DNA of 64,000 bases from Trypanosoma brucei (Eukaryota). The stretch's first letter is position 1; every line of letters begins with the position of its first letter. The position numbers and the translations under genes are program-made. The DNA lies in assembly GCA_000002445.1 (NCBI GenBank), contig CM000207.1, positions 288,001 to 352,000 of the forward strand. The letters run 5' to 3'. Below the pieces are notes generated by a model. That model was not told the origin of the DNA. It saw nothing but the letters and a program-made list of their open reading frames with translations, and did no database searches. Shown in pieces: positions 1,338 to 23,746 of the stretch.

Positions 1338-3118
1338 ATGAACTGTTTCAGCGTGATTCTGACAGAAGCAGCAATAATTTATACCGCGATAGCGTTCGCT
1401 AGAGGCCAACCAGACAACACCAACACTATAGGAAACACGGCAACTACATGGTGCGATGACTTGCACTACACTGAGGCGCTAATGAAAGACTTGAGAGACG
1501 AAGCAGAACAACGGCTAACGGTTCTGACGCACGACAACGATATGCTACAAGCCTGGACCATTTCTTTCTACAACGCAAAAGTGGAAACGGAAAAAAGGTG
1601 GTTCGCCTTTTTGCTTTCCTACGGCATGCCAGTTGCAGGAGACAACAGAAAAAACTACAACAACTTCAAATCGCAATCAACGAAGACAGTGTAACACGTA
1701 ACAGCGAAAGCGCATTACTTACGGCAGGCGGAAACGGTAGCGACACATGGGCAACCTGCGTTTGGCACGACAGCACAGACAAGCTGAAACTCAAACACCA
1801 ACCCACAATAATTTAGCTACGAAAGGTCTTAAATGACTTTATTTAGCAGAAGAATTTCTACTTTTACCGGCGTAATTGCGGCGCTGATCCTGATCTTTCA
1901 GGGAGCACAAGCTAGCACCGGAAACGAAGTGACCAAATAGAACACACCGTGCGACTCTGCTCATTACCTAATCAAACTCGCTGCGGAAGCTGACTCAAAA
2001 CTGCGGGACTTGTTGGAAAAAGCGGCAGAAGCACAGGATGAACAGCAAACAATTGATCTATACTCGGCGACAGCTGATGTGGGAGCAAACAGACCAGCCC
2101 TGGCCTGGCTGCTAGATAACGCATCACGCCGCGTGGCGACGTTAGCGAAGGAAGCTGTAACATGCAGGAAAGCAGTAGCAGAGCTCACAAGAACACTCCA
2201 CATCGAAGCGGGACGCAAATGGCTACTAGCAGATGCCACACAGATCAGCTCCAAAACGGGAACGGAAACAGCGATGTCAACAACAGCCAGCGGTGACTCG
2301 GTCGCAGCGCATCTCAAGCTCGACAAGCTAACTGACAAAACATGTGCCCAAGCATACTCAAAGCAAGCCGGCGACACCAAGAATGACCCAGTCGTTGTGG
2401 CCCTGGAGCAAATCAAAGTGCACAAGCTCGAAGGCAAAGACGCCGCCGAAACCACAAACAACGTCTGCAAAGTCTCATTTGACGGTGCCGAGTGCAGCAC
2501 CGACCCAAACAACATCAAAGTTTCAACGGCAACAACGGCACTTTTCAAAGCCACAGAACATACTCAAGTAACGGTCAAACCAGGCGGCAGCAAAAACGCG
2601 CGAGACGACAGTCCCCAAGGGCTAAAGAAAGAATTGGAAGAACACGCAAAAAATTTATAATACCGGCTCTACAACTTTCTAAAAAACAAACCATGCGACA
2701 CAGATATGGCCTCCATCCGTAACATGGAACTTGTACAAAACGATGAATGTTTTAGGAAAGCAGTTCTGATAGAGTTACAAGGCCTGAATCCAAATATGAT
2801 GCAGGCAATGATTCACAATCCAAAGCCACAACAAGCGGCATAAAAAGCATGTTCGGCGATAGTGAGACAGAATTCAATGCTAAGATATGGGAGAAGGTGA
2901 AGGCGAACACAGTAAAACAAAAAATAGTCGGAAAAGACATTGAAAGCAAAATCGAACAACTTTCTACCGACACCAACAGAGGACTAGTTCTAGCGTACTA
3001 TGCCTCTCAAAGGAAAAACAAGCCAACATGTGACACAGAGGCCTCCACACAAAAATCACAACAATGCGTAAGCCACAAAACACCAGAACACTGTCAAAAA
3101 GAAGGCTGTTATTTTGAT
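1338..3118 (+). pseudogene. Variant surface glycoprotein (VSG) pseudogene, frameshifted and 3'-truncated by an ingi insertion
   Basis: ORFs at 1338-1694 (hydrophobic signal-peptide-like N-terminus), 2010-2660 and 2849-3190 are collinear on the plus strand but lie in frames 0, 0 and 2, with a frame-2 ORF (1598-1816) in between. The last segment carries a Cys-rich VSG C-terminal-domain pattern (CDTEASTQKSQQCVSHKTPEHCQKEGCYFD). The coding sequence breaks at the ingi target-site duplication (3107-3118) and resumes after 8385. Confidence 0.75.
3107..3118. repeat. Target-site duplication of the ingi insertion, left copy (TGTTATTTTGAT)
   Basis: A 12-bp string identical to 8374-8385 immediately flanks the element termini. 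Confidence 0.85.
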
Positions 3119-3389
3119 TTTTTTTGGAATTTTCTTCGTGCCTTTGAGAGAGTTTCCCCCCACTGGCGCGGCCATCAGCTATCACCGTAGAGCCCTGAGA
3201 TGCTATCGGTCTGGCGACTGTGGCAGAGTCTCCCTTTTTTATTCATCCTAATACACTCTCTCTATAACGTTTTGTTGTAGCTCCGCAGTTGAACGGAATA
3301 CAGCAGATGGGGCGAGAAGCCCCCCACCCCGGACTCTCCAAAAGATGTCAATTAGCAATCCTTTTGTTTTGATTTTTGTTATTCGTTTA

Positions 3390-4501
3390 TTATTCTCTCC
3401 CCCTTTTTATGTTTTTGTTGCTTGTTGACTGCATACCCCCTCTGTCTCTGAGGGTGTCTGGACTATTCCTGCATCCGGTGCTTTTCCTGCTAGCTCCACA
3501 CTCGGCAATAAGGGGGGAAGTTGCAGAAGGGAGAGTGGGTTGTATGACTGTTACCTTAGGTGAGGACTTCACCTGCGGCCGGCTCCGTTCAACCGCAATG
3601 AGAAACTGCGCCAGCCTTTTGGAGAAGCATATATCCTGCACACACTCACCTTCCACCGCAAACCTGACACGTAACTCCTTCAAACCGGGACAGCTCATCG
3701 AGTGCAGCGACGTTTCTTCACAGTCGCCGCGTTGGCTGGTAACAGCGCGCTCTACCTTCATACCGTGCATCTTCTTTTGATGTAGGGTGAGGCCAGTTTT
3801 GCTAGCACACTGCCTTCCGCATGTCGGGCACACCAACATGGATGCATTTGTATGCGGGGAATCAGTGGCACAAAATTTTTTGCTTTTGCTGCATTTAAGC
3901 TCGACACCCTCACCTTTGTGGAAAGCCTTACAGTGTCGGATGAGGGAGTCCCTGCAACTGAGCACTTTTTGGCACACACCACACTGCACCTCGCCTTTCC
4001 CCTGGGGACGTTAACGTTTCCCTCACGGGCACGCTTACGAGGGAATTGCACCACCACCACGGTACCGTCCTCCGTCACTATGCTCTTATGTTTGAATTTC
4101 TTGTCTAGTGACAGGGAAGAGCGTGTACCGAAACTCGCCTCACACAGGTCACATTGAAACGGCAGCTTCCGTGTATCCTGAGGGGCTGGCGCTGCTGGGG
4201 CGCTACCATCTCCTTGCACTGAGTCCTCGTTCTCTCGCTCCCTTTTCACGCGGCAACTACCGCTGCCTATGCCATGTATTGTTCTAAGGTGGTGTAATAG
4301 TCGGCCTGGCACTGCGAATTTGGAGGCACAGAGGGTACAATGAAGAACCTGCGGTCTCATCGGGACTCGTGTGTTCGATGGTAGAGGAACGATCACCACC
4401 ACTGGAGGGGGCTCCGGGGGGATATCCACTGCAGGTGTTGCATCGCCGTATTTGATCCTCCGGAGGGCATCAGCTCGCACAAAGCCATGTTTGTTTACCA
4501 T
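3390..4501 (-). CDS. ingi ORF C-terminal fragments with C2H2 zinc fingers
   Basis: Zinc-finger patterns CTLCASKF...HHLRTIH, FQCDLCEASF...KFKH, CPTCGRQCASKTGLTLHQKKMHG and CGVCQKVLSCRDSLIRHCKAFH occur in two overlapping frames, 3758-4501 and 3390-3989. Confidence 0.7.
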
Positions 4502-4756
4502 GCGCGTTACAGCACTCGAGCGGCATTGGTATATGGCATCACATTCCGTACATTTGGTCGGTTCGGAGGTTCTCTGAAGAGTGCGTGTCGCAACAGTTGG
4601 GACCGTTTGTATTGTTTGCCCTATCTCTGCATGTTGCGGGTTGCACCATCGGCACTGTGGGAGCGCACTCGGGTTGATCTTTCACAACATCCATCCATAG
4701 TGCCTTGAAGACCCAACCCGAAAGCGTGCCAGTGCCGTTTCTTCTTCCATCGTTAA

Positions 4757-6886
4757 TTATTCCTTATGTTTTGTTGTAAAGTGGTTGCCCGTGATACCAA
4801 ACCTATGAGTGTTCTCATGGACTTCTTCCGACCTAAGCACTCGCTTCGCATAAGCAATGATGTCGGGGATCCATGTGTCTCGCAACTGTGGTAAATCAGC
4901 GGCCTTTTTGGCCATTTCATCACAAACCTCATTCCGTTTCACGCCACAATGGCCAAACACAAATTGCAGTCGGATACGTATCTTCCTTCTCTGAACTTGA
5001 AGCAGAAGCCTCCATAGTCGTCTCAGAATTGGGTCCGTTACGGCTAGGGGGCCTGTCTGCAGTGCTGTTAACATTGACAGCGAGTCAGAGAAGATGGACA
5101 ACCTGCTCTGTGTGCTTCTGTATGCCGGAAGCCATTTCAGCAGCCGTTGCAGTCCTATCTCTAATGCTACGCATTCCGCTCTGTAACTGCATGAGAGTTC
5201 CTCTGCTCCGGTCTTGGGTGCACAAATCAGCGTGTTGTTTCTATAGAGCAGGGCAGCTGCTCCGGACTTCTCACCGAGGGACACGGATCCATCAGTCCAC
5301 AATTCGTAGTGCTCTCGCCGCGGTGGCTCCTTCCCCCTCCGTGCAAAATGCCGTGCAATCCACTTTTCGGAAGCCTCCCTTTTGACATCATCAGGGTCAT
5401 CAGCGCATACGGGCTTTATCTGCGTGTGAAATAGCGGTCGGCAGCTGTGGCGGAGCGTCGATGTCTCTAGTGGGTGCTCGCGTGGCTCAATGTGGAGGTG
5501 GGGATAGGACCACATGATGCGGGATTGTAGGGCTCTGACCGTATGTTTACTGTGGTATACTTCCTCAGCACTGCGGCGCAAACATCCGCCTCGTGACTCA
5601 CACATCAGCATGAATTTCATGCTGCGCACAAGAGTGGCCGTCTTGAGTAGCAGGAGGTTTGCTTCCAGCACAGAGTTCTCTTTGCGCGTCCCATGCGGTA
5701 TGCCGGCTATGATGCGACTGGCTTTGTGTTGTGCTGATGCAAGGAGGTCGCGACTTCGTTCCGAAGCGTCCCAGTACCATACCTCAATACCATACATGGT
5801 GTGTGCCTGTACGAGTGCTAGATAAAAAGCTCTCAGTACTTGTTGTCTTGGCCCCCATGTAGAAGCTGAGATGGCTACTATCTGCAGTAGTCTGAAGTCC
5901 ATCTTGCGTCTCGTTTCGGTCGCATGTGTTGCCATCCCCTGCAGACACTGGAATGTTACTCCTAGAAGCTTCGGTGTCCTGTCAGCTCCTATTCTTTCGC
6001 CGTCCAGTTGTAATGTAAGGGGGTGGCGCTCTGTACACCCGAAGAGTGTGCACTTTGTTTTCGCTACGTTGACAGACATGAAGTACTCTTTTGACCACTG
6101 TAACACCACGTTTAGGCCGCATTACAGCGTGTGGTTGATGACATCCCTCTCTGTGTGCCTCGCAAGTAGCGTTAGGTCGTCTGCAAAGAATCCGTGCTGC
6201 AGTAACGGCACTTCTGCAAGGCGTTGGCTCAACGAGTTCATGACAATAATGAACATGATTGGGCCAAGGACAGTTCCTTGTGGCACTCCTCGCTCAAATG
6301 TTCTGCTTCTGGAAAGCTTCTCCTTGAATCTCACTCTGCCAGTTCGGTTACTCAGAAATGATACGCACCACTTCACAATGTGGGGTGATACCTTCATTCT
6401 GTGCATTTCCCTCGCAATTTTGTCGTGGTCTACTGTATAAAATGTCTTCTCGTAGTCAACGAATACAGCACCCGTACGATATTGGTGCGTGGGACGGCAG
6501 AGGGCAGCACGGACGTGCAGGAGTTGTTCGAGCGTTGAGCATCCGGGGCGAAAGCCTGATTGCTGCGGCGTCAGCTGGGACTCAACAGTGTCTCTAAGCC
6601 TCGCGGCAATTATGCGCTCCATGACTTTGCAGAGACAGCTCGTGAGCGTCACAGCTCTGTAAGAATCGAGGTCCTCCGCCTTTTTTCCGGCCTTCAGGAT
6701 GGGGATGATAACACCAGTCTTCCATGCAGGCGGCACGACTCCCGTTCGTAGGCTCTTATTGAATAGCTTCAGCAAAACATTCAGCGCTGTTCTACCGAGA
6801 TGTTGCAGTGCCTCGTTGTATAAGCAATCAGGTCCGGCTGCGGATCCACTCGGTAGCAGTTTGATCGATCTCCTTAGTTCAGCCAT
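4757..6886 (-). CDS. ingi ORF fragments: reverse transcriptase (6122-6886 and 4757-6109) plus RNase H
   Basis: RT motifs include LCKVMERIIAARL, QSGFRPGCST, VFVDYEKTF and FADDLTLL (the YxDD-box variant). The RNase H-like stretch is WTDGSV...SYRAECVALEIGL...FSDSLSML. The region is split into two ORFs by a frameshift. Confidence 0.8.
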
Positions 6887-6967
6887 CGTGATGGGACTGA
6901 ACTCACTCGCTATCGTCTTTACTGGTGCTGGTGGGTGTGAGTCGGGGTGCCTTCTTGCGCGGGACGA

Positions 6968-8365
6968 TTACAGCTTACTGAACTTCTCAGCTTGACGGCA
7001 GTCCGTGATGGTCGCGTTATCGACAAGTACAGCCGGTGTGGTTAGTGGTCGTGGCGCATATACTTTCTTGACAATGTGCCAACTGCAGCGGTCTGACACC
7101 GCAAGTCTGGAGCATAGCGTGCTCCATCTCTTCTTTGTGGTACGGTCCAGGATCTGCTTACGCGTGGCTACCAACTTTTCCCTTCGGTGGGAGGGTCCGC
7201 ATCCAGCGATCTCTTCATCGAGTTTCGCGAGCTCAGGTGTCCAATGTGGTGGCGTTGCTCTGCAGCCACGGGGGACGGAGACCTTCGTCGCAACGCGGAT
7301 TTCGGAGCTCAATTTCTGTTCCAGGGTGTTGACATTCTTCTCTCTACCAATTTTCCTACAGAGGTCGTCAACCTTGAGACGGAAATTCCTCCAGTCAGCT
7401 TTCAGCCATACGTACATGGGCTTTCGAGGCCGCGGGCAACTCAGTGCATCTGTGCCGTCTCCAACGATAACGTCAAAAAATATGTGATGGTGATCGCTAT
7501 CGGGAGAATACAGCGATGTCCACGTGTACACTGTGCAATTCCTTGACAGTGTCACATCAGGGGTGGACTCCCCGTGGTGGCGCGCGTACCTGGTGCACTC
7601 ACCAGTGTTGCAGACCAGAAACTGGTTGTCAATGCACCACTGTGTGAGGGTTTCACCCTTGGTATTTGGTGGGCTCGCGCGATCCCATGCCAACGCGTGT
7701 GCGTTAGCGTCTGCACCGATGAGCTGGGCACCGTCAGTCATCAGAAGCGTATCTAGGTCAGTTGCCGTGAAGGTGTGTTTTGGTGGGATGTATGCCGACG
7801 TGACAGTCAGCGCCGTTTCACTTGCAAGGTGAATTGTTGCATGCACTTGTTCAATGCGACTAACAACGGTCATACCGCTCTCGACTGGTAGGTCCTCCCT
7901 CACTAGTATTGATACACCACCTCCTTTGCAGTTACGAGCTATTCCGTGATGTTGGTAGCCAGCAACGCTAAAGCAAACCGCCTCTCCAGGCGTCATCCTT
8001 GTCTCGCTCAACGGACAAAAGGCGATCCGCTCATCAACAAGGGTTTTGTGGAGTGCTAATCTCTTTCCTTGAGATAGCCCGGCGCAGTTCCACTGTATCC
8101 CGCGCAACGACGGGCCGGGATTCTCTTCCACATCACCGGACAGCAACATCTTAGTGCGGATGATACTGCTGATGACACACTGGCACGTGCCCAGGGACCG
8201 ACAAATGAAGAACGGTGTCCCAGCAAGACGCTGCTGATCCCTGTGCTGTATGATGCCGTAGCCGGAGCACAGCAGTGTTCCCCATGAAAGGAACGCTTCT
8301 GACTCTTGGCTTACCCCGATGATACGGGGTACTGGACCCTGGCACCACGTTGAGGTGGCCGGCAT
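6968..8365 (-). CDS. ingi ORF fragment: N-terminal 2A-like motif plus apurinic/apyrimidinic-type endonuclease domain
   Basis: The ATG sits inside the element terminus (LAMPATSTWCQGP). DVEENPGP lies at 8111-8134. Endonuclease-like motifs present include IQWNCAGL, VSILVRED and LTVTSAYIPP. The ORF then breaks by frameshift. Confidence 0.8.
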   Translation of the reverse strand: MPATSTWCQGPVPRIIGVSQESEAFLSWGTLLCSGYGIIQHRDQQRLAGTPFFICRSLGTCQCVISSIIRTKMLLSGDVEENPGPSLRGIQWNCAGLSQGKRLALHKTLVDERIAFCPLSETRMTPGEAVCFSVAGYQHHGIARNCKGGGVSILVREDLPVESGMTVVSRIEQVHATIHLASETALTVTSAYIPPKHTFTATDLDTLLMTDGAQLIGADANAHALAWDRASPPNTKGETLTQWCIDNQFLVCNTGECTRYARHHGESTPDVTLSRNCTVYTWTSLYSPDSDHHHIFFDVIVGDGTDALSCPRPRKPMYVWLKADWRNFRLKVDDLCRKIGREKNVNTLEQKLSSEIRVATKVSVPRGCRATPPHWTPELAKLDEEIAGCGPSHRREKLVATRKQILDRTTKKRWSTLCSRLAVSDRCSWHIVKKVYAPRPLTTPAVLVDNATITDCRQAEKFSKL

Positions 8366-8373
8366 CGCCAGGG

Positions 8374-8385
8374 TGTTATTTTGAT
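8374..8385. repeat. Target-site duplication of the ingi insertion, right copy (TGTTATTTTGAT)
   Basis: Identical to 3107-3118. Confidence 0.85.
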
Positions 8386-8774
8386 GAAAACAAAACGCCA
8401 AAATGTTTTCCAAAAGAGAGCAAAGAAGACAAGAAAAATGGGCATAATGGGAAAACGTAAACTAAAAACACCACAGGAAACACTTCTTTTGTCATTCATA
8501 TGACCCCTCTTTTGCTTGCGCTTTTGATTCTATAATTTAAATTCTAAATTATTTTTTCCAATTTTCTCAAATTTTATATTTTGAGAGAATTGCTATATTT
8601 GTGATATTTTAAAGTTGTTGATGAAAATGTGCAAATTCGTTTAATTTTTTTAAAAATGCGACATGTGTGCATGATAGCTATCTATCGGTGTAAAGTACTA
8701 TGGTGACAGGTTATGGAAAATTAGTGCTTTTCTACTTTGTTTATATAGTTTATTTTATGGATATTAGTCAGGAT

Positions 8775-10346: not shown

Positions 10347-11895
10347 ATGCGGTATTCAGCACTGCACAGTTGCCTCTGGGCCATGTTTCTCTTACTTTTC
10401 CATGAACTAAATGTGGACGCGACTTCAAAAGGCGCGATAAATGGCGACAAGTGAAAACCGCTGTGCACACTAACCAAGGACGCAGTCAAAGTGTATAACC
10501 GTGCACTCAAGCTCCAAAAATTAATTAGGGACTACACCAAAGCGGCCAGCAAGCTGACTGTAGCAGCAATCGCTGCAGCGGAGAAGCTGCAAAGCACAGA
10601 CGCCACCGCGGCAACAATAGGACTTGTGGCTGAGATAAGAGAGCAGCTGAAAGCAAACAACCAAAAGTCGGAAGGTTCTACAAAGTGGCCGTAGAAACAC
10701 CGGCCTTCATGGGCTACACGCACGGACTGATAGCCGAATTCTTAGAAATAATGGGCCACAACAGAGGAGCATCGAACTACGGGTGCCTAGCAAAACTAAG
10801 CTCCCCGAATTCGCCGGCCACCGAAGCAGCAGCAGCACTATTATCGACCTGCAAAATCAAGCCGGATGACATAACAGCAGGAAGCGAACCGACGGCAGTG
10901 CTGACCAAAGCAGGTTTTGTCGGTATGGACGAAGGCACAGGCCTCGTCGCCGGTGTTCTCACGACCGGCGGCAACGAACACTGTGACCTAACGTCAGCCA
11001 CAGCAAGTGCCTTAAACTCAGACACAGGAATACAAGAAGATATTCCGTTCGCAGACGGCTATTTCCTAAAAGGGCCAACCAACACTGCTCAAACAAGTCA
11101 CCCCATAAATTCGCTGTCAAAACAAAGGGAGGAACTCCCAAACAAGGGCCAAAATCAACAATATGTGAGGCTGTGTGACAAGTACGTCCAACTGGAGAAA
11201 TGTGAAGCGGCTTTCAAAGAGGGGTTTTCGAGACCCGAAGCAGAGACACTCAAACAGTCAGGAGCAGTATTAACAGCCCTGAAAAACATAATCGACAACA
11301 AAAGCGGCGAATATGACCCGAGTAAAGACGGCGGCCAGATCAAGACCATGGCTGAGAAATTGTTCAAACCCGGCGTGGACAACTACCCAGAAAAGCTATA
11401 CAAGGAAGTACAAGCAAAGACGTTGACAAAAATACTGATGGCGGGCAACACAGCAACGAGCCTGGCGGAACTGGAAACCCCAATAGACCTGCAAATCGCA
11501 CAAATATACTATATACAACGCAAGATCGATGGTTTTACCGCAAAAACTAAAGGAAGCTGAGAAACAGCTTTCCAAGGCTAAACTGGGTGATTATGGAGCA
11601 GCCGCAGCAGAAGATGCCTGCAATAAACTAGATGGCGAACAAAAATGCAGTTACGAAACGGCAAGTGATGGGACTAAAAAGTGTACATATAATGCAAGCA
11701 AAGCAAAAGCAAACAACGTCCCTGTAGCACGAACTCAAACAGAATCGGCTGAAAAAACAACAAAGAAATGTAAAGGTAATAAAATGGATGACTGCAAGTA
11801 TCCGGATTGTAATTAGGAAGGTAAAACTTGCAAAGACTCTAGTTTTCTCTTCAATACGAAAACGACTCTGATGGCTGCAACTTTTCTGTTTTTTT
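10347..11895 (+). pseudogene. VSG pseudogene with multiple frameshifts and an in-frame stop before the GPI signal
   Basis: A signal-peptide start MRYSALHSCLWAMFLLLF lies at 10347. Collinear ORF pieces follow at 10491-10694, 10685-11560 and 11529-11816. A VSG C-terminal-domain segment (...CNKLDGEQKCSYETASDGTKKCTYNASKAK...) is followed by a TAG and then a GPI-signal-like tail (KDSSFLFNTKTTLMAATFLF). Confidence 0.8.
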
Positions 11896-12254
11896 TTAAA
11901 TTTTTTCACCCTCTATTTCCTTGCTGAAATTTAATATATTTTAACAACTGAAAGTTTCCCGGAAATAGTGTAGTTTTGTAAGTTTGTGATTCTGCAAAGT
12001 TTTTATGATAGCTAAAAAAATTTCTCTATTTTTCACATTTTTTAGAATTTTTTCAGGGTTATGATTTTTTAGAATTTATAGGGTTAGGTTTTTTCAAGGG
12101 CTTTTTAATTTTCGACTTTGTTTAATTTTGTGTCTTTTGGAGCATTTTTTATTTTTTCCTTCGTTTTTTCGGTTTTTTATTTTTGTCCAACTTTTTTAAA
12201 TCTTTTTTTTAATTTTAGGAGAAACAAAACCGATCAACAAGCTGAAAAGAGACT

Positions 12255-12300
12255 AAACAGAGTTGAAGTTAGGGTTAGTGTTAGGGTTATTGGATTGAGG
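12255..12300 (+). repeat. Degenerate TTAGGG telomere-repeat stub downstream of a VSG
   Basis: The string gttgaagttagggttagtgttagggttattggattgagg sits within a T-rich tract that follows the VSG 3'UTR. Confidence 0.5.
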
Positions 12301-12379
12301 TTGTTAATTTTTTGATTGTTTTTTATTTCACTTCTTTTTATTTTTTATTTTTTCTAATTCTTCAATTTTTAAAATTTTA

Positions 12380-12735
12380 TTGATGCAGCGGCTCTTTTTC
12401 TTGATGCGGGATATGACCCTTATTTACCCAGCAAGCATCTTCATTCTTATATTTTTCACCTGCGCCATCTACCTAATTTGTTACTTTTTTGCTTTTGTGC
12501 ATTTTAGCTCGGCATGTAGCGCTGCACGCGGCTTTTTTGTTAACAGTGGCGCGTGGCAGTTTCGCTTCGAGAAACGATTTGCTTTTAAAGAGACGATAAC
12601 AAAAAAATCTTAATATTTGGAAATGGCAAAATATGGAGTTCGGCAGCTAAAGCCAGTCGACGTAGCAGCCTGTACCGGTCGTTGCGCGGCACAGCAACAT
12701 AGCCAAAGTAAGCGGATGAGGCGAGCAGTTAACTG
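12380..12735. repeat. Conserved element, copy A of 2; homologous to 19055-19430
   Basis: By eye it shares about 80% identity with copy B. Both copies contain GATGCAGCGGCT..., gcgctgcacgc, cttaatattt(g/a)gaa(a/g)tggca(a/g)aatatgg and cggcagctaaa(g/a)ccag...cgacgtagcagc...ggcgcggcacagca. Confidence 0.6.
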
Positions 12736-13227
12736 CAGTGTCATCAGGCCACTGCGTGCACATCACCATGCCCCAACAGATCCGGCGGCGACAGTCAAAG
12801 ATCTTAATGCATGGCCCCAAAATCACTAAGTGCATAAATCTACCGCAAAAGCAAAGCAACAAGCCAACAGTAGAGGGACAGAAAAAATGCAAACCACAAA
12901 ACGCAACAGCTGAAGAATACACAAGCGAGGACTGCGAATATGATGCCGCCAAAAACACAGGAATGTAAACCTAAACAAGGAACAGAAACCCCAGCAACAG
13001 GAACAGGAGAGACAAGTTCTGGGGTAGATTGCAGCAAAAACCAAACCCAGAAAACCTGTGAAGCGAAAAACAAGGATGTAAAACCGGGTCAGAAAGCAGT
13101 ATGTGGATGGATAGATTATGTTGACGGCACAGGCAAGCTTCCCAAACCTGAGTGTCGCTCTTTCAGTTTCCTCATCAATAAGAAATTTTCTCTGACGGCA
13201 GATGCTTTCGTGGCTTTGTTAGAATGA
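12617..13227 (+). pseudogene. Orphan VSG 3' fragment (C-terminal-domain cassette), frameshifted
   Basis: ORF 12940-13227 ends ...KAVCGWIDYVDGTGKLPKPECRSFSFLINKKFSLTADAFVALL, a VSG C-terminal domain plus GPI signal. There is no N-terminal domain or signal peptide upstream. The fragment lies in two frames. Confidence 0.7.
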
Positions 13228-13320
13228 TGAGAGTTTAAGCACTCTAAGAATTATTTCTCAATTTTTTGAAATATTGCTATTTAGAAACAATTTACTATAA
13301 TTAATAAATTTGCCACTATG

Positions 13321-13336
13321 TGACATATTTTAACAC
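13321..13336 (+). promoter_or_regulatory. VSG 3'UTR 16-mer, variant TGACATATTTTAACAC
   Basis: One mismatch from the conserved VSG 3'UTR 16-mer TGATATATTTTAACAC. It sits about 100 bp downstream of the stop codon of the VSG C-terminal-domain fragment. Confidence 0.6.
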
Positions 13337-13539
13337 CATTTAGAAGAAAAAAGAAATTTAATGAAATTTAAGGGCTAGAAAATGTAAAAAATGTTTTTAT
13401 GAAAGTGTCATGCTGTTGTTAAGCAGTAGGATATTAGGGTATTAAAAAATAGTGACATTTTAACATGCTTTGTTTTGTTTTCTAATTATGGACATCAAGT
13501 AGGTTTATAATAAAATCAATAGTTAAGAACATTATAATG

Positions 13540-13698
13540 ATAATAATATAAGTGATATTGATAGCGGAGTGTTGTGAGTGTGTATATACTAATATTATAA
13601 TAAGAGCAGTAATAATAATAATAATGATACTAATAATAGAAGAGTGTTGTGAGTGTGTATATACGAATATTATAATAAGAGCAGTAAAAATAATAATA

Positions 13699-13729
<31 letters not shown>

Positions 13730-13878
13730 TAATAATAGGAGAGTGTTGTGAGTGTGTGTATATGCGAATATTATAATAAGAGCAGTAAAAATAATAATAA
13801 TAATGATAATAATAATAATAGAAGAGTGTTGTGAGTGTGTGTATATGCGAATATTATAATGAGAGTGCTGCGGTCACA
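13540..13878. repeat. VSG-upstream 70-bp repeat array, about 4.5 imperfect units
   Basis: The array repeats (TAA/TGA)n, then GAGTGTTGTGAGTGTGTGTATATRCGAATATTATAATAAGAGCAG. (TAA)n runs reach 10 units. Confidence 0.85.
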
Positions 13879-14835
13879 ATTAAACTTTAAAATAGGTGTA
13901 CTTAAAATAATTGAAACTGATCAATGGGAATAAGTAGGTATGCGAGAAAAGGAAGGAAAAAGGAAAGGAGACAAAATGTGCTCAGATTCAAACGACAGTA
14001 TGACGATGGTCATTATTATACACAAAGATATGATAGAGGGGATGATGAGGTAGAAACAATGTGCAGGCCTAATAGAGTTAGAGCGTCACTCGCCCCACCA
14101 CCATCACAGAAATTTGTGATATATAAGTATTAAAAAAAAGATTGGATTTCACATCTCACTATATACTGGATATATTCTTTGCGGAGATGATTGCAGTAGC
14201 AGCAGTAGCAGTAGTTCCAAACGCTACGCTGATGGGAGTCTTATGATGGAAACCGCGTAATTGGAATAGCTAGCACACGGAGCTGGTAAAATTCCTAGCA
14301 TATCTGAACTAAACAGTGACAAAAGATACTTCCATTAAAATAACTATGCGTATAGGTGAAATTTAAGAAATGCAATAAAGGAGTAGAACTCCTCTAGAGC
14401 TCTCGGCACCAGCTGTTGCTAAAACTGAATTATAAAACAAAAACCTGTAGATACACGTTTAAAGAGAAGCTGCACACACTAAGAATACATTTTTCATCAG
14501 ATACATCATAACAATATCAAGTCAATACCTATGTATATAAAACTGTTTCTTAACTAAGCAGCTTAGTAGTACATCTGGCTTATCTTTCATGAGTTTTCTA
14601 CATTTTTTTCTAATAACAGCCTAAAATTATAAAGGTATATTAGGCAATAAAGTTTCGTATGTTGAGAAACTTAACTTTACTGTTTCTATCACATTTAGTG
14701 TGTGTATGCTCTGTATCTATTCAATACAATGAAGTAAATTACATAACAAATATAACAGATAATAATACTAAGAAACCAAGAGCATTTGTGGTTGTGGTTC
14801 AAACTCATGCAACACAAGGATAGTGTAGCCTAACA

Positions 14836-15575
14836 TTGAGAGCCAAACTAAAGCATGTTGAAATTATTAAAATTGTGATAGGAGGTTTGTATAGCCATGT
14901 TAAGAGGCCTAGATGGGTTATGCAATATTTAGAAAATCAGAATTCAAGTGATGAGGATATTGTAATTCATTTGGATGGATCTGATGTTATAGTTAGTGAT
15001 AGAAATAAGTATGAGAGTGCTGTGGAATATTTTATACAAAAAAGTGAATAAACTGTGGAAAAATTCAGTGAGGAGGTTATTTTCAAGGAGAAGCATATTT
15101 CCCCTATTATATTCATGACAACATCCGAGTGTTATCCGCCTAAGTTGGATTTGTTTATGAACTCAGATCACAAGGAGCATGTACAGAGATGTTATTGGTT
15201 TTTTAATGTGGGCTACAGAAAAGAGGAGGATAAGAAGCTACAGCATCTACTAATATAACCTGCAAGTGGAAAATATTGCCTTAGTGGTGGTTTGATAGCC
15301 AGAGTTTGGGCATTTAAAAAATTTGAATATGCTTTTGGAGAGTTACTAAAGGGAAGTGAGGAGTGGTGGTCATACAAGAGTATTTCAAAGCCTCTGCTAA
15401 TATGGAGTGCTACACAAGAAAAGCTGTTGGACAGAGATTTGTTTTGAAGAGAGGAATGATTGGATTGGATTATGAAGAGAGATTCTTTACTATTCCAAAT
15501 AGTGGTGAGATTTTGAATGCACCATTTATTCATTCACTTACCTGGGCAAGCAATTTCGTAGAAAGAAAAGAATGA
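14836..15575 (+). pseudogene. Decayed gene of unknown family in the co-transposed region between the 70-bp repeats and a VSG
   Basis: Three plus-strand ORFs are present. ORFs 14836-15051 and 15055-15258 share a frame and are separated by one TAA. ORF 15363-15575 is frameshifted. I found no recognisable motif. Confidence 0.4.
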
Positions 15576-15944
15576 AGACGATTGTAAAAAATCTTACTTG
15601 GAATAATGAATTGCTAATGTAAAGTCAAAGGTTGAAGACGTAAAAACCACTACAAACATTTTTTGATAACTTTGAAAAAGTGAGCGTAAGATATAACTTT
15701 CGTTGTAGAAATAGACTGTAAAAGGTGCTCTGTTCGTGCCTGAAAAATAGACAGAAAGCAACAAGAAAGTGTGAGTACAGTAATTGGAAACAGAGAATTC
15801 CTGATTTTCGTTATTAACAAAACTGAGTTATTTAAACGCACACAACCTCCAACGGGAGTCAGTCGTGTCTTATTCCAATTTCACTGCGCTTCAAGAGAAA
15901 GGCACCCGAGCTGCAACTTTAAAAGAAATATTCAAAACTGCGCA

Positions 15945-17510
15945 ATGCCACAGATCTCAAGGTGTTCAAGGCACCAATTAACCGTAGCAGCATTGTCGCT
16001 AGTCTTCTCGAATTTAGCAAGAGGCGCGACCACAAACGGCGTAAACGCACCAGCGTACGCAACTTTGTGTGACATTTACAATCTTAAGGATGCTAAACCA
16101 CCAACAGTATGGGCAAAGCAGTTTGATGACGCCCAAAGTTTAATAACGGCCATTTACAATCTGAACATTAGTACCGCAAGTGATACGTGGCTAACAAACA
16201 AAGACGGCGAGTTCGCAAATATCTCCGACAGCGCCGAGAGAGACGGGCAGTTGAAGGAGTGGATTAAGCAAGTCGAAGCGACAACAGCCGCAGACACGAC
16301 CACGGGTAAACCAGGGCCGTACAGCAAAGTACCCAACAACCCCTTCAAACCGATCGCAAACAAGCAAATTGACGCTTTGTACCGGCAAGCGCAAACGAAA
16401 AAAGGAGCCTTCGAGCAAGCTAAGAAAGAAGTAACAGAAGCACACACCAAAGCGAACCGTAAGATTCTGGACGCCATCTACGGCACCGGTAAATCGGCTT
16501 TCGACACTACAGCTTTCACAACCACAAAACAGCAAATGTGTGGCAACGGCAACAACGGCCACGCGAATGTCGGCAAAAACATACTAAACGACATGATCTG
16601 CCTTTGCACGGCGGAAGGCAGCCAATCGGACAAGGCATGCGGAGAGAAAGACATGGGCGAAGTGCAAAGCGACGCGACAGGGGCCGAAGCCGCAGCAGCA
16701 AACCTCGAGGGGGCGTGTACCAAAAAAGAAACAAAACAAGAGCTCTCAGAGGCCCTAATACAAGCGAAGCTAGCAGCGTTTTTCGCACACGTCGGTGCAA
16801 TACCAGACAGCCAAACTGACGCCTCGGTACGATTCGTACTAGGCCAGGCCCAGACAGGCGGCTGTGTAGGATCAAGCAACAAGCAATGCGTAAACTACAA
16901 AGCGCAATTAACTACAGGGGGCGGCGGAATTCCATGGGTCAACCAACTGGAGGAAGCGGCCTCGATTTTACGCAGGGCATCAATAGCATACGCCGAAGCA
17001 GCCCACATCGATGCCGAACTAAAAAGTCTGAAGGCCCAGGCCGCCAGCTTACGCAATGCAGCAGTCATAGGCATTGCTCTGCCTGATATGGCCTCAACAG
17101 AACGCCGCCTCGATAGCCCCAAAGAACTTAGTTAAAGTGCAGAACAAGCTTGTAACAAACTAAATAGTGAACAAAAGTGCAATGCTGATCCGAAATGCAG
17201 TTACGAAACAGAAAGCGATGGCACCAAAAAGTGCAAATATAATGCGACAAAAGCGAAAGAAAAAGGAGTTTCTGTAACACAAGCTCAAACAGGAGGAGGA
17301 ACAACTGCACCCTCAGATAGGTGCACAAAACACAAAGACAAAACGAGCTGTGAAAAGGAAAATGAGGGCCAAAAACCGGCCGAAATTCCGAAAGATAAAA
17401 AATCTGTTTGTGGTTGGATTGAGGAGAAATGCAAAGATTCTTCTATTCTAGCAACTAAAAAATTTGCCCTCAGCATGGTTTCTGCTGCATTTGTGGCCTT
17501 GCTTTTTTAA
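15945..17510 (+). pseudogene. VSG, near-intact, with a single in-frame TAA at 17133-17135
   Basis: A signal-peptide-like start (MPQISRCSRHQLTVAALSLVFSNLARG) at 15945 is in frame with the long ORF. After the TAA the same frame continues through a C-terminal domain, ...CNKLNSEQKCNADPKCSYETESDGTKKCKYNATKAK...SVCGWIEEKCKDSSILATKKFALSMVSAAFVALLF, and reaches a stop at 17508-17510. Confidence 0.8.
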
Positions 17511-17569
17511 GTTCCCCCTCTCAATTTACTAAAAAATTCTTGCTAAAAAATTTTGCTACTTGAAAACTT

Positions 17570-17586
17570 CTTATATATTTTAACAC
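17570..17586 (+). promoter_or_regulatory. VSG 3'UTR 16-mer-like element, variant CTTATATATTTTAACAC
   Basis: It lies downstream of the VSG stop codon and is preceded by ttgctacttgaaaac. Confidence 0.5.
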
Positions 17587-17714
17587 CTTTAAATTCCACC
17601 GAAAAAATTGAGCTGTGTTTGTAAGTTGTAAAGTTTGTGATTCTGTAATTTTCTAATTTTTCTAGCAACTAAAATTTTTTTTTCTTTCCTTTTCCTGTCT
17701 TTTTAATTTTTGTA

Positions 17715-17866
17715 GGTAGGTAGGAGGGGGGGGTAGTTAGGTTAGTTAGGGGGGTTAGGTAGGATTAGGATTAGGATTAGGGTTAGGGTTATGGTTACTC
17801 GGTTAGGGTTAGGGTTAGGGTTAGGGTTAGGATTAGGGTTACTCGGTTAGGGTTAATTTTTCTTTT
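17715..17866 (+). repeat. Interstitial telomere repeat tract (TTAGGG)n, G-strand on the plus strand
   Basis: The tract reads ggtaggtaggagggggggggtagttaggttagttagggggg, then (ttaggg)n with variants ttagga and ttatgg and a ttactcgg spacer. Confidence 0.85.
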
Positions 17867-17879
17867 TTTTTTCTAATCC

Positions 17880-19100
17880 ATTTTTTTTATAAAGTGATGC
17901 AGCGGCTCCTCCTTTTTTATGTGCACCGCCGCAGCCGTTACGATTTATTATGTTTTCATATACCAGGTTGCTTGTTTTTTAATTTTTCAACTTTTTATTA
18001 GTGATGCAGCGACTCCTTTTTTTTTCACTGACGTTTAATTTATTTTTTTTCATATTAGTGATGCAGCGGCTGTTTTATTATGTGGACCCTAACCCTCCTC
18101 CCCCCCACCCCAGACGCCCCCGCGTACGCACCTTTTTTTTTCGTGTTTTTTTGTCTTCTTGATTTTTCGAATTTTTTTTCAATGTTTTATTCGAACTTAT
18201 AATTTTTTTGATTCACTCACAATTTTTAATTATTTTTTTTTAGCCGTGCAGCGGCTGTTTTATTATGCGGACCCTAACCCTCCTCCCCCCCCGCACACCC
18301 GCGCACCCGCACAGTTTTTTTAATTTTAATTTTTTTTACGTTTTGGAATGCGCGAATTTTTTTAGTGCGTTTTTCACAAAGCCTTTTTTACCCTTTTTTT
18401 TGTATTACGTGATTTTATTTTTTTAATTTTCCGATTTTTTGATTTTAGTTTTTTTACGCCACACCCGCGACTTTTTTTGTCTTTTTGGTTTTTCGAATTT
18501 TTTTTCGTTCATTCTTTTGGCTTTTATAATTTTTTTGTTTTTATTTTTTGATTCTATTTTGCATTTGAATTTTTAAGTTTTTTTATTTTTAATTTTTTAA
18601 TTTATTGTTTTTTGCTTTTTAAGTTTTTGACATTTTTTGTTTTTGATTCCTTTTTTTGTCATCGACCGACACAAATTTTCTGTCACCGCCCCTTTTTGTT
18701 CGGCACGGCAGATGCGGTGTTTCGGGTTCAGGTGTTTCGGGTTAGGGGTTAGGGTTAGGGTTACTCGGTTAGGGTTACTTTTTTTCCTTTTCACTTTTTT
18801 TAATTTTTTTTTATGATGCAGCGATTTTTTTCGCAGCCCTGCCGGCAATCCAATTTATTATTTTTATTGTTTCTATTTTACAACACTTTGCTAATTTAAT
18901 TTTTAACTTTTTCTTTAGCGATGCGGCGGCTATTTTATTATGCGGACCCTAACCCTCTCCCCCGCGCGCACCTCCGTTTTTTTAATTTTTTTTGCCGCAT
19001 TTTTCAGCCCCTGTTTTCGAGTTTCTTTCAAATTTTTTTGTTTTTCAACCCAGCGATGCAGCGGCTGTTTTTTCTTCATAAACCCTGACACTTATGCGCG
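17880..19100. repeat. Composite T-rich tract with at least four GATGCAGCGGCT-family units (three followed by inverted CCCTAACCCT) and a second TTAGGG tract
   Basis: GATGCAGCG(G/A)CT-family units lie at about 17893, 18001, 18058, 18246, 18814, 18919 and 19064. The units at 18058, 18246 and 18919 run on into GTTTTATTATG(C/T)GGACCCTAACCCTC(C/T)TCCCCC (through 18108, 18296 and 18969). The others carry the head only. A TTAGGG tract in plus orientation lies at 18719-18778. The remainder is poly-T-rich, low-complexity sequence. Confidence 0.7.
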
Positions 19101-19430
19101 CTACAGCCATCCTCGCTTAAATTTTTTAAATATTCAGCACCTACCCGTGCAGTGGTGTTTGATACTTTTTTGCTTTTTTGAATTTCAGCTCTGCGTTTTG
19201 CGCTGCACGCAGCTTTTCTTTTTACGCTGATGCGTGTCAGTTTCGCTGCAGGAAACGATTTTCCTTTCAAGAGGCGCTAACAAAAAACTCTTAATATTTA
19301 GAAGTGGCAGAATATGGCGCTCGGCAGCTAAAACCAGCCGACGTAGCAGCTTGGACCGGTCGTGGCGCGGCACAGCACCCTAGCCAAAGCAGCCAGAGCT
19401 CTCAAACAATCAGCTGAAGCAGCAGCAGGG
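19055..19430. repeat. Conserved element, copy B of 2; homologous to 12380-12735
   Basis: See copy A at 12380-12735. Confidence 0.6.
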
Positions 19431-19904
19431 CAATGCAGGTGCATCACCATGCCCCAACAGATTAGGCGGCAGATGTAAAACATCTTAATGCTGGGTTCCA
19501 TAAGCACCACTTCCGAAAATACACTGCAAAAACAAAGCAGTAAGCAAACAGTAGAGCAAAAAAATAAATGCAAACTGAAAAACACAACTGCAGGAGCATG
19601 ACCAGAAGCTGACTGCGACAATGATAACACCACAAAGGAATGCAAACCTAAACCAGGATCAGAAAACGCAGCAGCAGGAACAGGAGATGGAGCAAAAAGT
19701 AAGTCTCAACAGTATAAGGACACAGATAGTTGCAAGAATGCACCAGAAGAGAAAAATCTAGCTAAAAATGCAGTCTGTGGTCGGATTTATTTTATTGATG
19801 GTCAAGGAAACGTTGAAGCTTAATGCTGTGATAAAAGTTTTTTTGCAAAAACGAAATTTTCTCTGATCGCCGCTGCTTATATGAGTTTGTTAGCAATTAA
19901 ATGA
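19430..19904 (+). pseudogene. Orphan VSG 3' fragment (C-terminal-domain cassette) with an internal stop
   Basis: The fragment is homologous to 12738-13227. It reads ...KNAVCGRIYFIDGQGNVEA, then a stop, then ...KFSLIAAAYMSLLAIK, then a stop. A 3'UTR 16-mer lies downstream. Confidence 0.7.
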
Positions 19905-20007
19905 TTTTATTACTCTAGTTATTTAATGATTATCGCTCAATTACACGAAAAACAAGAAATTTATAAATTTTTTTATTTTGGGAGAATTTACTAAAAATTC
20001 GAAAATT

Positions 20008-20023
20008 TGATATATTTTAACAC
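20008..20023 (+). promoter_or_regulatory. VSG 3'UTR 16-mer TGATATATTTTAACAC
   Basis: Exact match to the conserved 16-mer as I recall it, about 100 bp after the stop of the C-terminal-domain fragment. Confidence 0.7.
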
Positions 20024-20177
20024 TTTTTTGACAAAATGTACTAATTTTTGAAATTATCAAAAGCTGGTATGATAGTAGGTAATGGGCGTAGTGCCATGCA
20101 CTGATAGTGTGTAAAAATTAAGTACTATTATAATTTGTTTTATTTATTATATGCATATTAGTTATACTTGTATCATT

Positions 20178-20340
20178 AATGGTAATGATGATAGAAGAGT
20201 TGTGTAAGTGTGTATATACTAATACTATAATAACAGCAGTAATAATAATAATAATAATAATATTAATATTAATAATAATAATAATAAAGGAATTTGTGGT
20301 GAGTGTGGACATACTAATATTATTATACGAGTTGTGATGA
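20178..20340. repeat. 70-bp repeat array, about 2 units
   Basis: The array reads gatgatagaagagttgtgtaagtgtgtatatactaatactataataacagcag, then a (TAA)n run, then ggaatttgtggtgagtgtggacatactaatattattatacgag. Confidence 0.8.
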
Positions 20341-21223
20341 ATACTAAATTTCCAGAAAAAATAAAAGCAGTCAGATAAGCGGCAGGGGTGTATTGGAACT
20401 AGTTTATTTAGTAAGTGAGTTTAGAAGTGATAGAGGACGAGAAATATTAAAAGAAGTGCAGAAACTAAGAAAGAAGAATGTTGATTATGAACAGTTTCGG
20501 ATACAAGCATGACGATCGTCATCATGACATGCAAAGGTGATGAAGCACCCATTTAAGAAGCTACAGAATCACGTATACAGGCCTAACGGTGTTGGTGCCT
20601 CATTCAAAGAACCAGCAGCATTAAACAAAAAGGAATGAAAGAATATATGGCATGAAACAGCATGATATGCAGTAAAAAACAAATAGGAATATAGAACAGC
20701 GTGATTATATAGACTCGGAATGACACACCTTATTTTATTTTAAGAATGTATAGACACGGCGGTGGACATGGTTTCATGTATCGTTTGTAATCTGATAATG
20801 GCCAGTTAGATTTAAAATAATAACAGAAGAGTTCTTATTATAAAGTAAAAGCTGGTGCTAACATTTCTCCAGATAATATTTTTAAAGAGAGGAAAGAGGC
20901 TGACTAGCTGTATTTTTGAATGTAATGAAATGGAAAAATAGAACGTGGAGAGCGATGGCCTACAGATAGCACAATACGTTCGGAATAGCCATTAATTCAG
21001 ACCCAAAGATATATGTTGGGACCGCAAAAGGAAACAACAGGAATGAAATCTTTTATCCACAGTAAAAGTAATGCAAAGATTAGGAGCGTATGCATAAACA
21101 ATTTTCAAGTACATTTTGAACCACAGGTGGTAACAATCCATGCTGTTTCCGACGCTGTAACAGTCTGTAGAACCCAATAAAGATTCTTTAACAAAGTTAC
21201 TTTCGTGTTATAAAAGAAAAAAA

Positions 21224-22852
21224 GTGCGAATGATGTTCGGCAAAGCAACTGGAGAAAAGATTGAGCTGGCGAGCACATCGGCGGCGATAACCCTCCTTAT
21301 TTGCATGTTGGGTACCCCTAGCGAGGTGGATGCAACTGCAGGGCACGCTATCAAGAGACAGCATTGGGTTGCTATTTTTGAACTAGGGCAGGATGCAGAA
21401 AAGATACCAGCTTTAGCACTGACAAACCTGAGGAGCGCTGCAAGCGTGGCCGAAGATGCATTCACGAAGCTACTAAGAGCGCTAATTTACGCGCAAGCTA
21501 ACCTCACTAGAAGAACCCTACCAAAGGAAAAGGCAGCATGGTTTTTTTTGGGAGAAGAGGTCGCCGCTGGTCTAGCTTACTTCAAGGGCGGCAAAGCAGC
21601 AGCTGACATAACAGCCGCCCGTAACGCCGGTAGGCTGCAGGGCGCCATCACAGAATTCATTGAGCTCCACGCAGAGGGCTCAGACGGAACTAACGGCTGT
21701 CTCAGCGCAGATGACGACGGGGGCAACCCGATCAGCGGCAAGGCAACTTTCTCAGGCGCAACAACGGCATGCAAAGCAAACTGGGATGACGTAAAAGCAG
21801 CATCAACAAGGCCAACAGTTATCGCCGCCAACGGACTCGTAGGAAAACTGCAAAACGGAGTCGACCACGACAATCTAGTAAACGGAGCGAAACAGTGCGA
21901 TATAAACTCAGCGAAAACGACCTTCAAGCTGTCTGACGGGGCAAGCGACGGAACTAACGTGGGCACGCACATACCGAAAATGGCGGCAGGCATAATAACA
22001 GTGGGCACCACGGGACTCGAGATACCAAGCATGGCAAGCGTGGGACCGACGACTGGGCACCACGACTTCTTGAAATCAATAGTACAAGCAGCAAAGTGCG
22101 ACCAACACAGACTGCAAAAAGCAGCAGTGGACACCCTGGCAGAGGCGCAGAAGGAACCGAGGTTCAAAAAGGCAACAAAAATACACCTCCAAAACAAGAA
22201 ATCCGACGACCCCGATGATGAAGACTCCAGAGAGCGTGCGATAAAGACGGCATACGGCGACGACGACGGCATGCGGAAGGTGCTTTACGCCCACCCAGAT
22301 GGCCAACCAATCCCCAAAGCAGCACTAGGCACCGACGCCGACACAACATTAGGCCAAATCACGGACGTTGGTGAACTGATGCGTTTGTACTTTTACTATT
22401 CGGACTTGAACAAGCAGAAACTACTAGAAGCTGAGAAAAAACTTCAAGAAGTAGAAACCAAGACGGCTACAAAATCAGCAGAAGACAAAGAGAAAGAATG
22501 CAATACCAAAGGGAAAGACAAAAAGGAAGAGTGTGAAAAACTAGCGAAAGAGGGGTGCGTTTTTAACACAGAAGCCAAAAAGTGTGAGTTGAAAAAAGAA
22601 GTGAAACCTGAGCTAGAAAAAGCAAACCAGGAAACAGGAAAGACAACAACAGATAAGTGTGGCATAGAAAAACCTCCTGAGGACTGCGAAAAAGTGCAAG
22701 GTACGAAACCCAAAGGAAAAAATGTCGTTTGTGGTTGGATTGATTATATTGATGGAAAGGGCAAAGTTGAGCCAGCTTGCCGCTCTTCTAGTTTTCTAGT
22801 CGACAAGAAACTTGCTCTTATTTCTGCTGCATTTGTGAGCTTGCTTTTTTGA
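21224..22852 (+). CDS. VSG, apparently intact (542 aa) with signal peptide, N-terminal domain, Cys-rich C-terminal domain and GPI signal
   Basis: This is one uninterrupted ORF. The N-terminus carries a hydrophobic stretch (AAITLLICMLGTPSEVDA). The C-terminus reads ...KECNTKGKDKKEECEKLAKEGCVFNTEAKKCELKK...CGIEKPPEDCEKVQG...VVCGWIDYIDGKGKVEPACRSSSFLVDKKLALISAAFVSLLF. A 70-bp repeat array lies about 0.9 kb upstream and the exact 16-mer lies 90 bp downstream. Confidence 0.85.
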   Translation: MRMMFGKATGEKIELASTSAAITLLICMLGTPSEVDATAGHAIKRQHWVAIFELGQDAEKIPALALTNLRSAASVAEDAFTKLLRALIYAQANLTRRTLPKEKAAWFFLGEEVAAGLAYFKGGKAAADITAARNAGRLQGAITEFIELHAEGSDGTNGCLSADDDGGNPISGKATFSGATTACKANWDDVKAASTRPTVIAANGLVGKLQNGVDHDNLVNGAKQCDINSAKTTFKLSDGASDGTNVGTHIPKMAAGIITVGTTGLEIPSMASVGPTTGHHDFLKSIVQAAKCDQHRLQKAAVDTLAEAQKEPRFKKATKIHLQNKKSDDPDDEDSRERAIKTAYGDDDGMRKVLYAHPDGQPIPKAALGTDADTTLGQITDVGELMRLYFYYSDLNKQKLLEAEKKLQEVETKTATKSAEDKEKECNTKGKDKKEECEKLAKEGCVFNTEAKKCELKKEVKPELEKANQETGKTTTDKCGIEKPPEDCEKVQGTKPKGKNVVCGWIDYIDGKGKVEPACRSSSFLVDKKLALISAAFVSLLF

Positions 22853-22957: not shown

Positions 22958-23109
22958 TATTTGATAAAAATGTACAAGTTACTTGAAAATTTAAGAAATT
23001 ACGCACGATTACGGCTTACGGATGTAAAGTAGTTGGGTTGTAGGTTAGTAACAACGAGTGGTATTCTAATTTAGCTTACTTTGTTTATTTTTCTTCATTT
23101 CATGGATAA

Positions 23110-23210
23110 TAGTTAGGGTTATAATAATAATAACAAAGATGATATTAACATGAGAGCGTGCCGAAAGTGTGTACATACTAATATTATAATAAGAGTAGTG
23201 GTGAGAACTA
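23110..23210. repeat. Single 70-bp repeat unit
   Basis: The unit reads ataataataacaaagatgatattaacatgagagcgtgccgaaagtgtgtacatactaatattataataagagtag. Confidence 0.6.
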
Positions 23211-23746
23211 AACTGACGGGGAAAATAAAAGCGATTCAAACACTGACAAGCGTGTGAGCGGAGTAAGTGAATGAAAAAAAGTGAGTGAGTGGGTGTGGGA
23301 GCGCGAGAAATATGATTGGTGTAAACACAAAATAAAGAAGATAGACAGAGGGAAGATATATTGTATTCACATGCTCCGGCAAAAATATGATGATTACCAT
23401 TATAATACACAAGAAGATGATGTATAGAAAAATGGCGTAGCGACAGGACTCAGAGCAAAAGTCAAATAGTGTCGGTACGTTATCTGTAGAAAACTCAACA
23501 GAAGACAAAAAAAGAGCAAAAATACATACTGAAATTGCTGGGTGCGGAAGATTGAATCACAGAATAAACTGATACCATAGGTGATTGTGCTCCGTATTTT
23601 AAACGAATTGATAGAGGCTAATGTAGAGATGATGGGTGGCAACTGTAGTTATTAATCTGATTTGGGAGCCAGGTGTTAGACAATAAGCTGTTACATCAGA
23701 GGCGCAAAGAATGAATGTGTGACCTTTTACTTTAACGGAAGAATAT

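Follow-up and report, generated by a model that had tools for sequence, protein, structure and literature searches.

Little is yet understood of how the archive of VSG genes is assembled and renewed. Most VSG fragments in the archive are reportedly C-terminal, and in other eukaryotes short internal tracts of telomere repeats, the interstitial telomeric sequences, mark past rearrangements. VSG fragments are a recognised class of the archive (PMC1868767), and subtelomeres hold residual expression-site sequences that stem from recombination (PMC10686619). Telomere-proximal VSGs carry TTAGGG-like repeats on their 3' side (Aline & Stuart 1989, as cited in PMC3708902). The distance from a VSG to the telomere is 200-1590 nt, and the extra VSG pseudogenes in bloodstream expression sites have been ascribed to the copying of one cassette into another (PMC2567434). 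Here we describe a block, present twice in a silent VSG array, in which a telomere-type 3' flank is joined to the tail of a VSG gene.

Genomic context

The window that we analyzed is a 64-kb stretch of T. b. brucei TREU927, and all recurrence counts refer to these 64 kb. Three VSG cassettes lie on its + strand, in the following surroundings:

Ends near 11899, + strand: VSG1, an A-type pseudogene with several defects; 16-mer-like site at 11932
15942-17510, + strand: VSG2, B-type, with an in-frame TAA at 17133
21230-22852, + strand: VSG3, A-type, intact
8802; 13505-13865; about 20177-20347; about 23100-23200: 70-bp repeats
About 23.7-28 kb, + strand: ingi-like retroelement, after the VSG3 cassette
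From about 38 kb to 64 kb, minus strand: housekeeping genes

The TAA of VSG2 (17133-17135) is its single in-frame stop and falls between the N- and C-terminal domains; the rest of the gene is full length and in one frame. Retroelement ORFs (endonuclease/reverse transcriptase and RNase H, ingi-like) flank the + strand array, at 1964-8413 on the minus strand and at about 23700-28000 on the plus strand, and gene orientation switches at the second of these elements. Farther on, a 526-aa ORF at 29859-31439 on the minus strand gave a sub-threshold match to A-type VSG (18.3 bits; cut-off 22.1) and has a hydrophobic tail (...MSIPLFMAFLLLA) with no 16-mer after it; we class it as an atypical gene, or one related to VSGs, at the boundary between array and core. 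Isolated telomere-like motifs were seen outside the array on the minus strand, TTAGGGTTAGGA at 32117-32128 and CCCTAACCCT at 60849-60858, the latter among the housekeeping genes. The same housekeeping region holds a (TAA)n run (53882-53931) that is 83-87% identical to the TAA part of the 70-bp repeats.

Two colinear copies of a composite block

The original prediction held that one block occurs twice in the same order, namely a telomere-like tract, a T-rich tract with a GATGCAGCGGCT unit, a non-VSG stretch, a VSG tail and 70-bp repeats. We confirmed this order behind VSG1 (copy A) and behind VSG2 (copy B), and every landmark that had been named (GATGCAGCGGCT, GCGCTGCACGC, CTTAATATTTRGAARTGGCARAATATGG, the C-terminal domain and the 16-mer) was found in both copies. 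The VSG 3'UTR was recognised by the 16-mer TGATATATTTTAACAC. Downstream of the telomere-type flanks, which are listed in the next section, the two copies consist of the following parts:

12477-12640, + strand: conserved T-rich non-coding part of copy A; 81% identical to 19158-19321; polypyrimidine tract plus AG
12641-12860, + strand: coding-like T-poor stretch of copy A; 74% identical to copy B; ancestral stops at 12648 and 12663
12861-13227, + strand: C-terminal-domain relic of copy A (Pfam PF10659); frameshift near 12957-12961; last 88 codons open
13228-13336, + strand: relic 3'UTR of copy A; 16-mer variant TGACATATTTTAACAC at 13321 (15/16); array-type flank leading into the 70-bp repeats at 13505-13865
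19158-19321, + strand: conserved T-rich non-coding part of copy B; degenerate unit core at about 19198-19223
19322-19904, + strand: coding-like stretch and C-terminal-domain relic of copy B; single phase from 19314, five in-frame stops
19905-20023, + strand: relic 3'UTR of copy B; exact 16-mer at 20008-20023; array-type flank leading into the 70-bp repeats at about 20177-20347

A BLASTN search with 11900-13500 against the window aligned 12477-13010 with 19158-19687 (536 bp, 76.5% identity, E 6.5e-111), and softer scoring extended the match to 12477-13222 against 19158-19893 (E = 2e-123). The conserved segment that had been placed ahead of the VSG tail does exist, but its strong conservation is confined to one gap-free block of 484 bp (12477-12960 / 19158-19641, 75.6% identity), whereas 12380-12476 was merely 50-58% identical between the copies. 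Identity collapsed past about 13010. In 50-bp windows it peaked at 86-90% at 12571-12700, which is upstream of the recognisable C-terminal domain, since VSG similarity starts at 12861 (copy A) and 19560 (copy B) in tblastn, and in the Pfam search at about 12949 and 19542. The pairwise alignment thus bore out the proposal that homology extends beyond the C-terminal-domain coding part. No third copy of the block was found in the 64-kb window, and pattern scans for copies in collections of metagenomes and prokaryote genomes gave no hits.

Assembly of subtelomeric repeats is difficult, and it is odd to see telomere-like tracts within an array, which might lead one to suspect that telomeric clones had been misjoined into the array. 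Such an artefact is, in our judgement, extremely improbable. The copies differ at 24% of positions and lie in distinct, internally consistent contexts, and a collapse or chimera would not give two diverged, colinear junctions.

In both copies the composition shifts from T-rich to T-poor and coding-like at a homologous position, about 12620-12640 in copy A, and this shared switch indicates that the junction was made once. Two stops, 12648/19329 and 12663/19344, are common to both copies. The gap-free alignment across the junction, taken together with these shared stops, shows that the junction and the pseudogene state predate the duplication, and that the whole block, junction included, is of common descent.

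The coding-like stretch immediately behind the junction (12641-12860) gave no Pfam or tblastn match and no detectable VSG similarity, and an N-terminal-domain profile matched the fragments in no frame. Its similarity, in the phase of the C-terminal domain, to the closing part of a B-type N-terminal domain is weak and no more than a hint (E 0.43); the stretch is probably the decayed end of a VSG N-terminal domain. A comparison of 12720-12965 with a 1.84-billion representative library matched no VSG and returned two hits only, both tandem-repeat proteins of Ancylostoma duodenale, which were judged spurious because the score was summed over 18 low-complexity repeats. On the minus strand, each copy has an open antisense ORF, of 103 aa at 12647-12958 and of 105 aa at 19328-19645; the two share their stop and have no homologues in the databases. 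The purine-rich composition of the sense strand probably accounts for them, given that the intact VSG3 also carries an antisense ORF, of 231 aa.

Telomere-type flanks and their repeat unit

An alignment of five 3' flanks separated them into two classes. The flanks of VSG1 and VSG2 contain GTAAGTTTGTGATTCTG, T-rich tracts and TTAGGG-like repeats, whereas those of VSG3 and of both relic tails run into 70-bp repeats. The motif GTAAGTTTGTGATTCTG lies at about 17627-17645 in the VSG2 flank and is absent behind VSG3 and both module tails; it marks what we call the telomere-type 3' flank. The TTAGGG-like repeats begin about 190 nt past the VSG1 and VSG2 stops. The features of these flanks are as follows:

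11978-11994, + strand: motif GTAAGTTTGTGATTCTG, just past the 16-mer-like site of VSG1
12037-12094, + strand: degenerate, weaker TTAGGG-like tract of copy A, also given as about 12055-12094 (CAGGGTTATG, TAGGGTTAGG); TRF period-27 array with GGGTTAG
12269-12303, + strand: telomere stub of copy A (TTAGGGTTAGTGTTAGGGTTATTGG...)
12304-12430, + strand: T-rich tract and repeat unit of copy A; GATGCAGCGGCT core at 12382-12393; decayed CCCTAA-like piece GACCCTTATTTACCC
17700-17855, + strand: large TTAGGG-like tract behind VSG2; TTACTCGG-interrupted repeats with a 44-bp period
17866-18720, + strand: T-rich region with four units; cores at 17896, 18003, 18060 and 18247
18720-18779, + strand: second telomere stub of copy B
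18785-19157, + strand: T-rich region with three units; cores at 18815, 18920 (then CCCTAACCCT at 18947) and 19055

Copy B had been placed at 19055-20023. Its G-strand telomere tracts, at 18720-18779 and 17700-17855, lie outside this interval, upstream of 19055, from which extra repeat units separate them. Region 12259-12341 of copy A matches both of the stub-plus-T-tract regions in copy B (17811-17890; 18746-18814) at 70-72% identity. Between the TTAGGG-like tracts of copy A lies an A-rich, non-repetitive 50-bp segment, AGGAGAAACAAAACCGATCAACAAGCTGAAAAGAGACTAAACAGAGTTGAAG (12218-12268), which is without a counterpart in copy B.

The T-rich regions are built from a repeat unit, TAGYGATGCAGCGGCTGTTTTATTATGCGGACCCTAACCCTCC, that comprises a T run, TAG(T/C)GATGCAGCGGCT, GTTTTATTATGYGGACCCTAACCCTCC and a C-rich run. 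Its core occurs eight times (12382, 17896, 18003, 18060, 18247, 18815, 18920 and 19055); GATGCAGCGGCT is exact at 12382 and 19055, and ATGYGGACCCTAACCCTCC with a C-rich run follows the cores at 18060 and 18247. With at most one mismatch, GATGCAGCGGCT was found 6 times in the window against 0.21 expected, always within 12382-19066, and TTAGGGTTAGGG 13 times against 0.12 expected. Within the flank of copy B, 17815-17904 and 18736-18823 are 80% identical, and 18034-18104 and 18895-18963 are 83% identical. Roughly, the flank of copy B would correspond to two tandem super-units, each of a stub plus units, and that of copy A to one shortened super-unit. The position of the units beside TTAGGG-like tracts suggests that this family may be typical of true telomeric VSG flanks.

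The C-strand telomere motif CCCTAACCCT occurs on the + strand within three of the units (18087-18096, 18272-18281 and 18947-18956), and G-strand TTAGGG tracts lie a few hundred bp away on that strand. Head-to-head joining of telomeres could have left this telomere sequence of opposite orientation as a trace.

The telomere-type flank does not stand at a chromosome end, as it is followed by more cassettes and then, from about 38 kb, by the housekeeping genes. If these genes represent the core, the G-strand points coreward, which would argue against a former chromosome end preserved in place and for import or inversion.

The conserved non-coding part

The landmark GCGCTGCACGC occurs at 12519 and 19200, and CTTAATATTTRGAARTGGCARAATATGG at 12609-12636 and 19290-19317. 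In copy A, GCGCTGCACGC is contained in TAGCGCTGCACGCGGCTTTTTTGTTA (12517-12542), which matches the core of the repeat unit at 22/26 positions with one 1-nt indel (z = 4-5 versus block shuffles). This alignment of the landmark to the unit core implies that the 5' part of the element is a further, degenerate unit of the T-rich family of the flank. The element of about 270 bp had been called unexplained; its 5' part can now be assigned to the flank repeat, but about 100-120 bp (12543-12665) had no match among all the comparisons made.

Two origins within a VSG cassette were considered. The idea that the element is a VSG 5' flank with a start codon was rejected: an ATG (12633/19314) does share the phase of the C-terminal domain, but two shared stops and no signal-peptide-like sequence come after it, and real VSG 5' flanks within the window are rich in A and do not resemble the element. 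A comparison with decayed VSG 3' ends and 3'UTRs gave short matches only (TTGCTTTTTTGA; TTCTTATAT-TTTT--CACCT), which were not significant after multiple testing.

Mismatches between the copies fall on the three codon phases as 33/45/39 (p = 0.40), with no concentration at third positions, and transitions are about as frequent as transversions. Together these observations suggest neutral drift of both copies. The T-rich non-coding part is slightly more conserved than the coding-like part (81% versus 73% identity, Fisher p = 0.044), which could hint at constraint or local conversion, and we do not take it as evidence of function. This slight excess, together with the 86-90% peak, is what speaks for the conserved stretch being a functional element itself, such as an RNA, a promoter or a boundary element. 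We regard this as very unlikely, however, because the peak straddles the junction and delimits no discrete element, and because part of the stretch is just another repeat unit. In addition, the stretch had no Rfam match at E <= 1, and its folding energy was no better than that of shuffled sequences (z = +0.60 and -0.21).

Decay of the VSG tails

Both relics scored above the Pfam PF10659 cut-off of 21.4 bits (57.3 bits for copy A and 35.4 bits for copy B), and a protein query with the C-terminal domain matched two VSG proteins and no others. Neither fragment is a complete cassette: upstream of each is a telomere-type flank, and they are without 70-bp repeats of their own or a full N-terminal domain. 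One stop, at 12717, is private to copy A, whose GPI tail is atypical, containing Asp and ending in ...DAFVALLE. The in-frame stops of copy B lie at 19329, 19344, 19476, 19599 and 19821. The last three are private to it, those at 19599 and 19821 are inside the C-terminal domain, and its GPI tail is decayed (...AAYMSLLAIK). Judged by their reading frames, both tails are pseudogenic, with no uninterrupted frame that has a usable GPI signal. Past the 16-mer, the 70-bp repeats begin after about 170 bp.

The distal half of copy A shows 69% protein identity over 91 aa to P0001, a VSG of another strain from another data set, whereas copy B shows 31% (both by tblastn). This disparity implies that at least one of the tails was patched by segmental exchange.

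Such a past exchange, the exact 16-mer of copy B, and a C-terminal domain and 3'UTR that can still be recognised would all fit orphan tails that are maintained as 3'-end donors for mosaic VSG formation. The original prediction went as far as to call them ideal donors for 3' segmental conversion, a description that their degenerate state contradicts: stops interrupt the C-terminal domain of copy B, copy A carries a frameshift and a mutated 16-mer, and the GPI tails are decayed in both. The apparently neutral drift also speaks against maintenance. Moreover, 3' donation has been ascribed mainly to the retention of a C-terminal domain already in the expression site or to telomere-proximal donors, and published 3' donors are mostly telomere-proximal or resident in expression sites (PMC3708902). 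We therefore hold a donor role to be decidedly unlikely.

Neighboring cassettes

The genes upstream of the two blocks are unrelated, VSG1 being A-type and VSG2 B-type; their similarity is limited to some 100 bp within the C-terminal domain (11643-11742 versus 17193-17292). Downstream, the cassettes have nothing in common beyond the 70-bp repeats and a generic C-terminal-domain/UTR similarity, and no larger duplication taking in the adjoining cassettes was found. The two blocks form an island of homology between unrelated cassettes.

That homologous blocks stand behind two unrelated VSGs, both with telomere-type 3' flanks, could also be read as the mark of a telomere-mimic docking slot. Here 70-bp repeats upstream and a telomere-type flank downstream, as at expression sites, would let an array position repeatedly capture telomere-proximal VSGs, and the apparently tandem super-units upstream of copy B are what repeated unequal exchange would yield. 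If true, this would provide a route for telomeric genes into the silent archive. Yet VSG1 and VSG2 are both pseudogenes, so there is no sign of a recent import of functional genes, and the passive survival of a spacer predicts the pattern of these two cases equally well. We consider a docking slot unlikely.

A probable recombination scar between VSG cassettes

The reading that we favor is that the block is an inherited recombination scar, which now serves as a spacer between VSG cassettes and is not a purpose-built donor cassette; we think this account probable. In a first step, a VSG 3' flank of the telomere-proximal type, with its TTAGGG-like tracts and T-rich repeat units, would have become fused in one ancestral event to the final ~190 codons of a VSG already resident there. 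The resident piece would have reached from where the N-terminal domain ends, through the C-terminal domain and the 3'UTR, up to and including the stretch that leads into the next 70-bp repeats. The composite would then have been duplicated within the array, and its copies would have drifted as non-coding DNA to about 24% divergence. Finally, the cassettes on both sides may have been replaced independently by ordinary VSG gene conversion, with conversion tracts that terminated within the 70-bp repeats at one end and within the 3'UTR or the telomere-type flank at the other, so that the block was spared. The ingredients of this proposal are already known, and it concerns one duplicated scar, of which two copies were examined.

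Internal telomere-type flanks joined to VSG tails would be footprints of past exchange between chromosome ends and the array. Should such blocks prove common, the archiving of telomeric genes could be traced with their help.

Comparison with known systems

The block resembles the VSG fragments of the silent archive in that it contains a truncated, pseudogenic 3' end (C-terminal domain, GPI signal and 3'UTR) in a subtelomeric array. It differs from them in that a conserved telomere-type flank is joined to this end on its upstream side, and in that the composite is present twice. With the 3' flanks of telomere-proximal VSGs it shares the T-rich surroundings and the TTAGGG-like tracts behind VSG1 and VSG2, whose distance of about 190 nt from the stops is close to the published range of VSG-to-telomere distances (PMC2567434); the tracts described here, however, are internal, short (35-155 bp) and followed by more cassettes. 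The extra VSG pseudogenes of expression sites offer a parallel in their proposed origin, in which the resident gene is only partly displaced by an incoming cassette. Those pseudogenes are telomeric and lie between 70-bp repeats, whereas the block lies in a silent array and carries a telomere-type flank. Unlike the interstitial telomeric sequences of other eukaryotes, finally, the telomere-like tracts of this array are embedded in a lineage-specific family of repeat units and are tied to antigen-gene cassettes.
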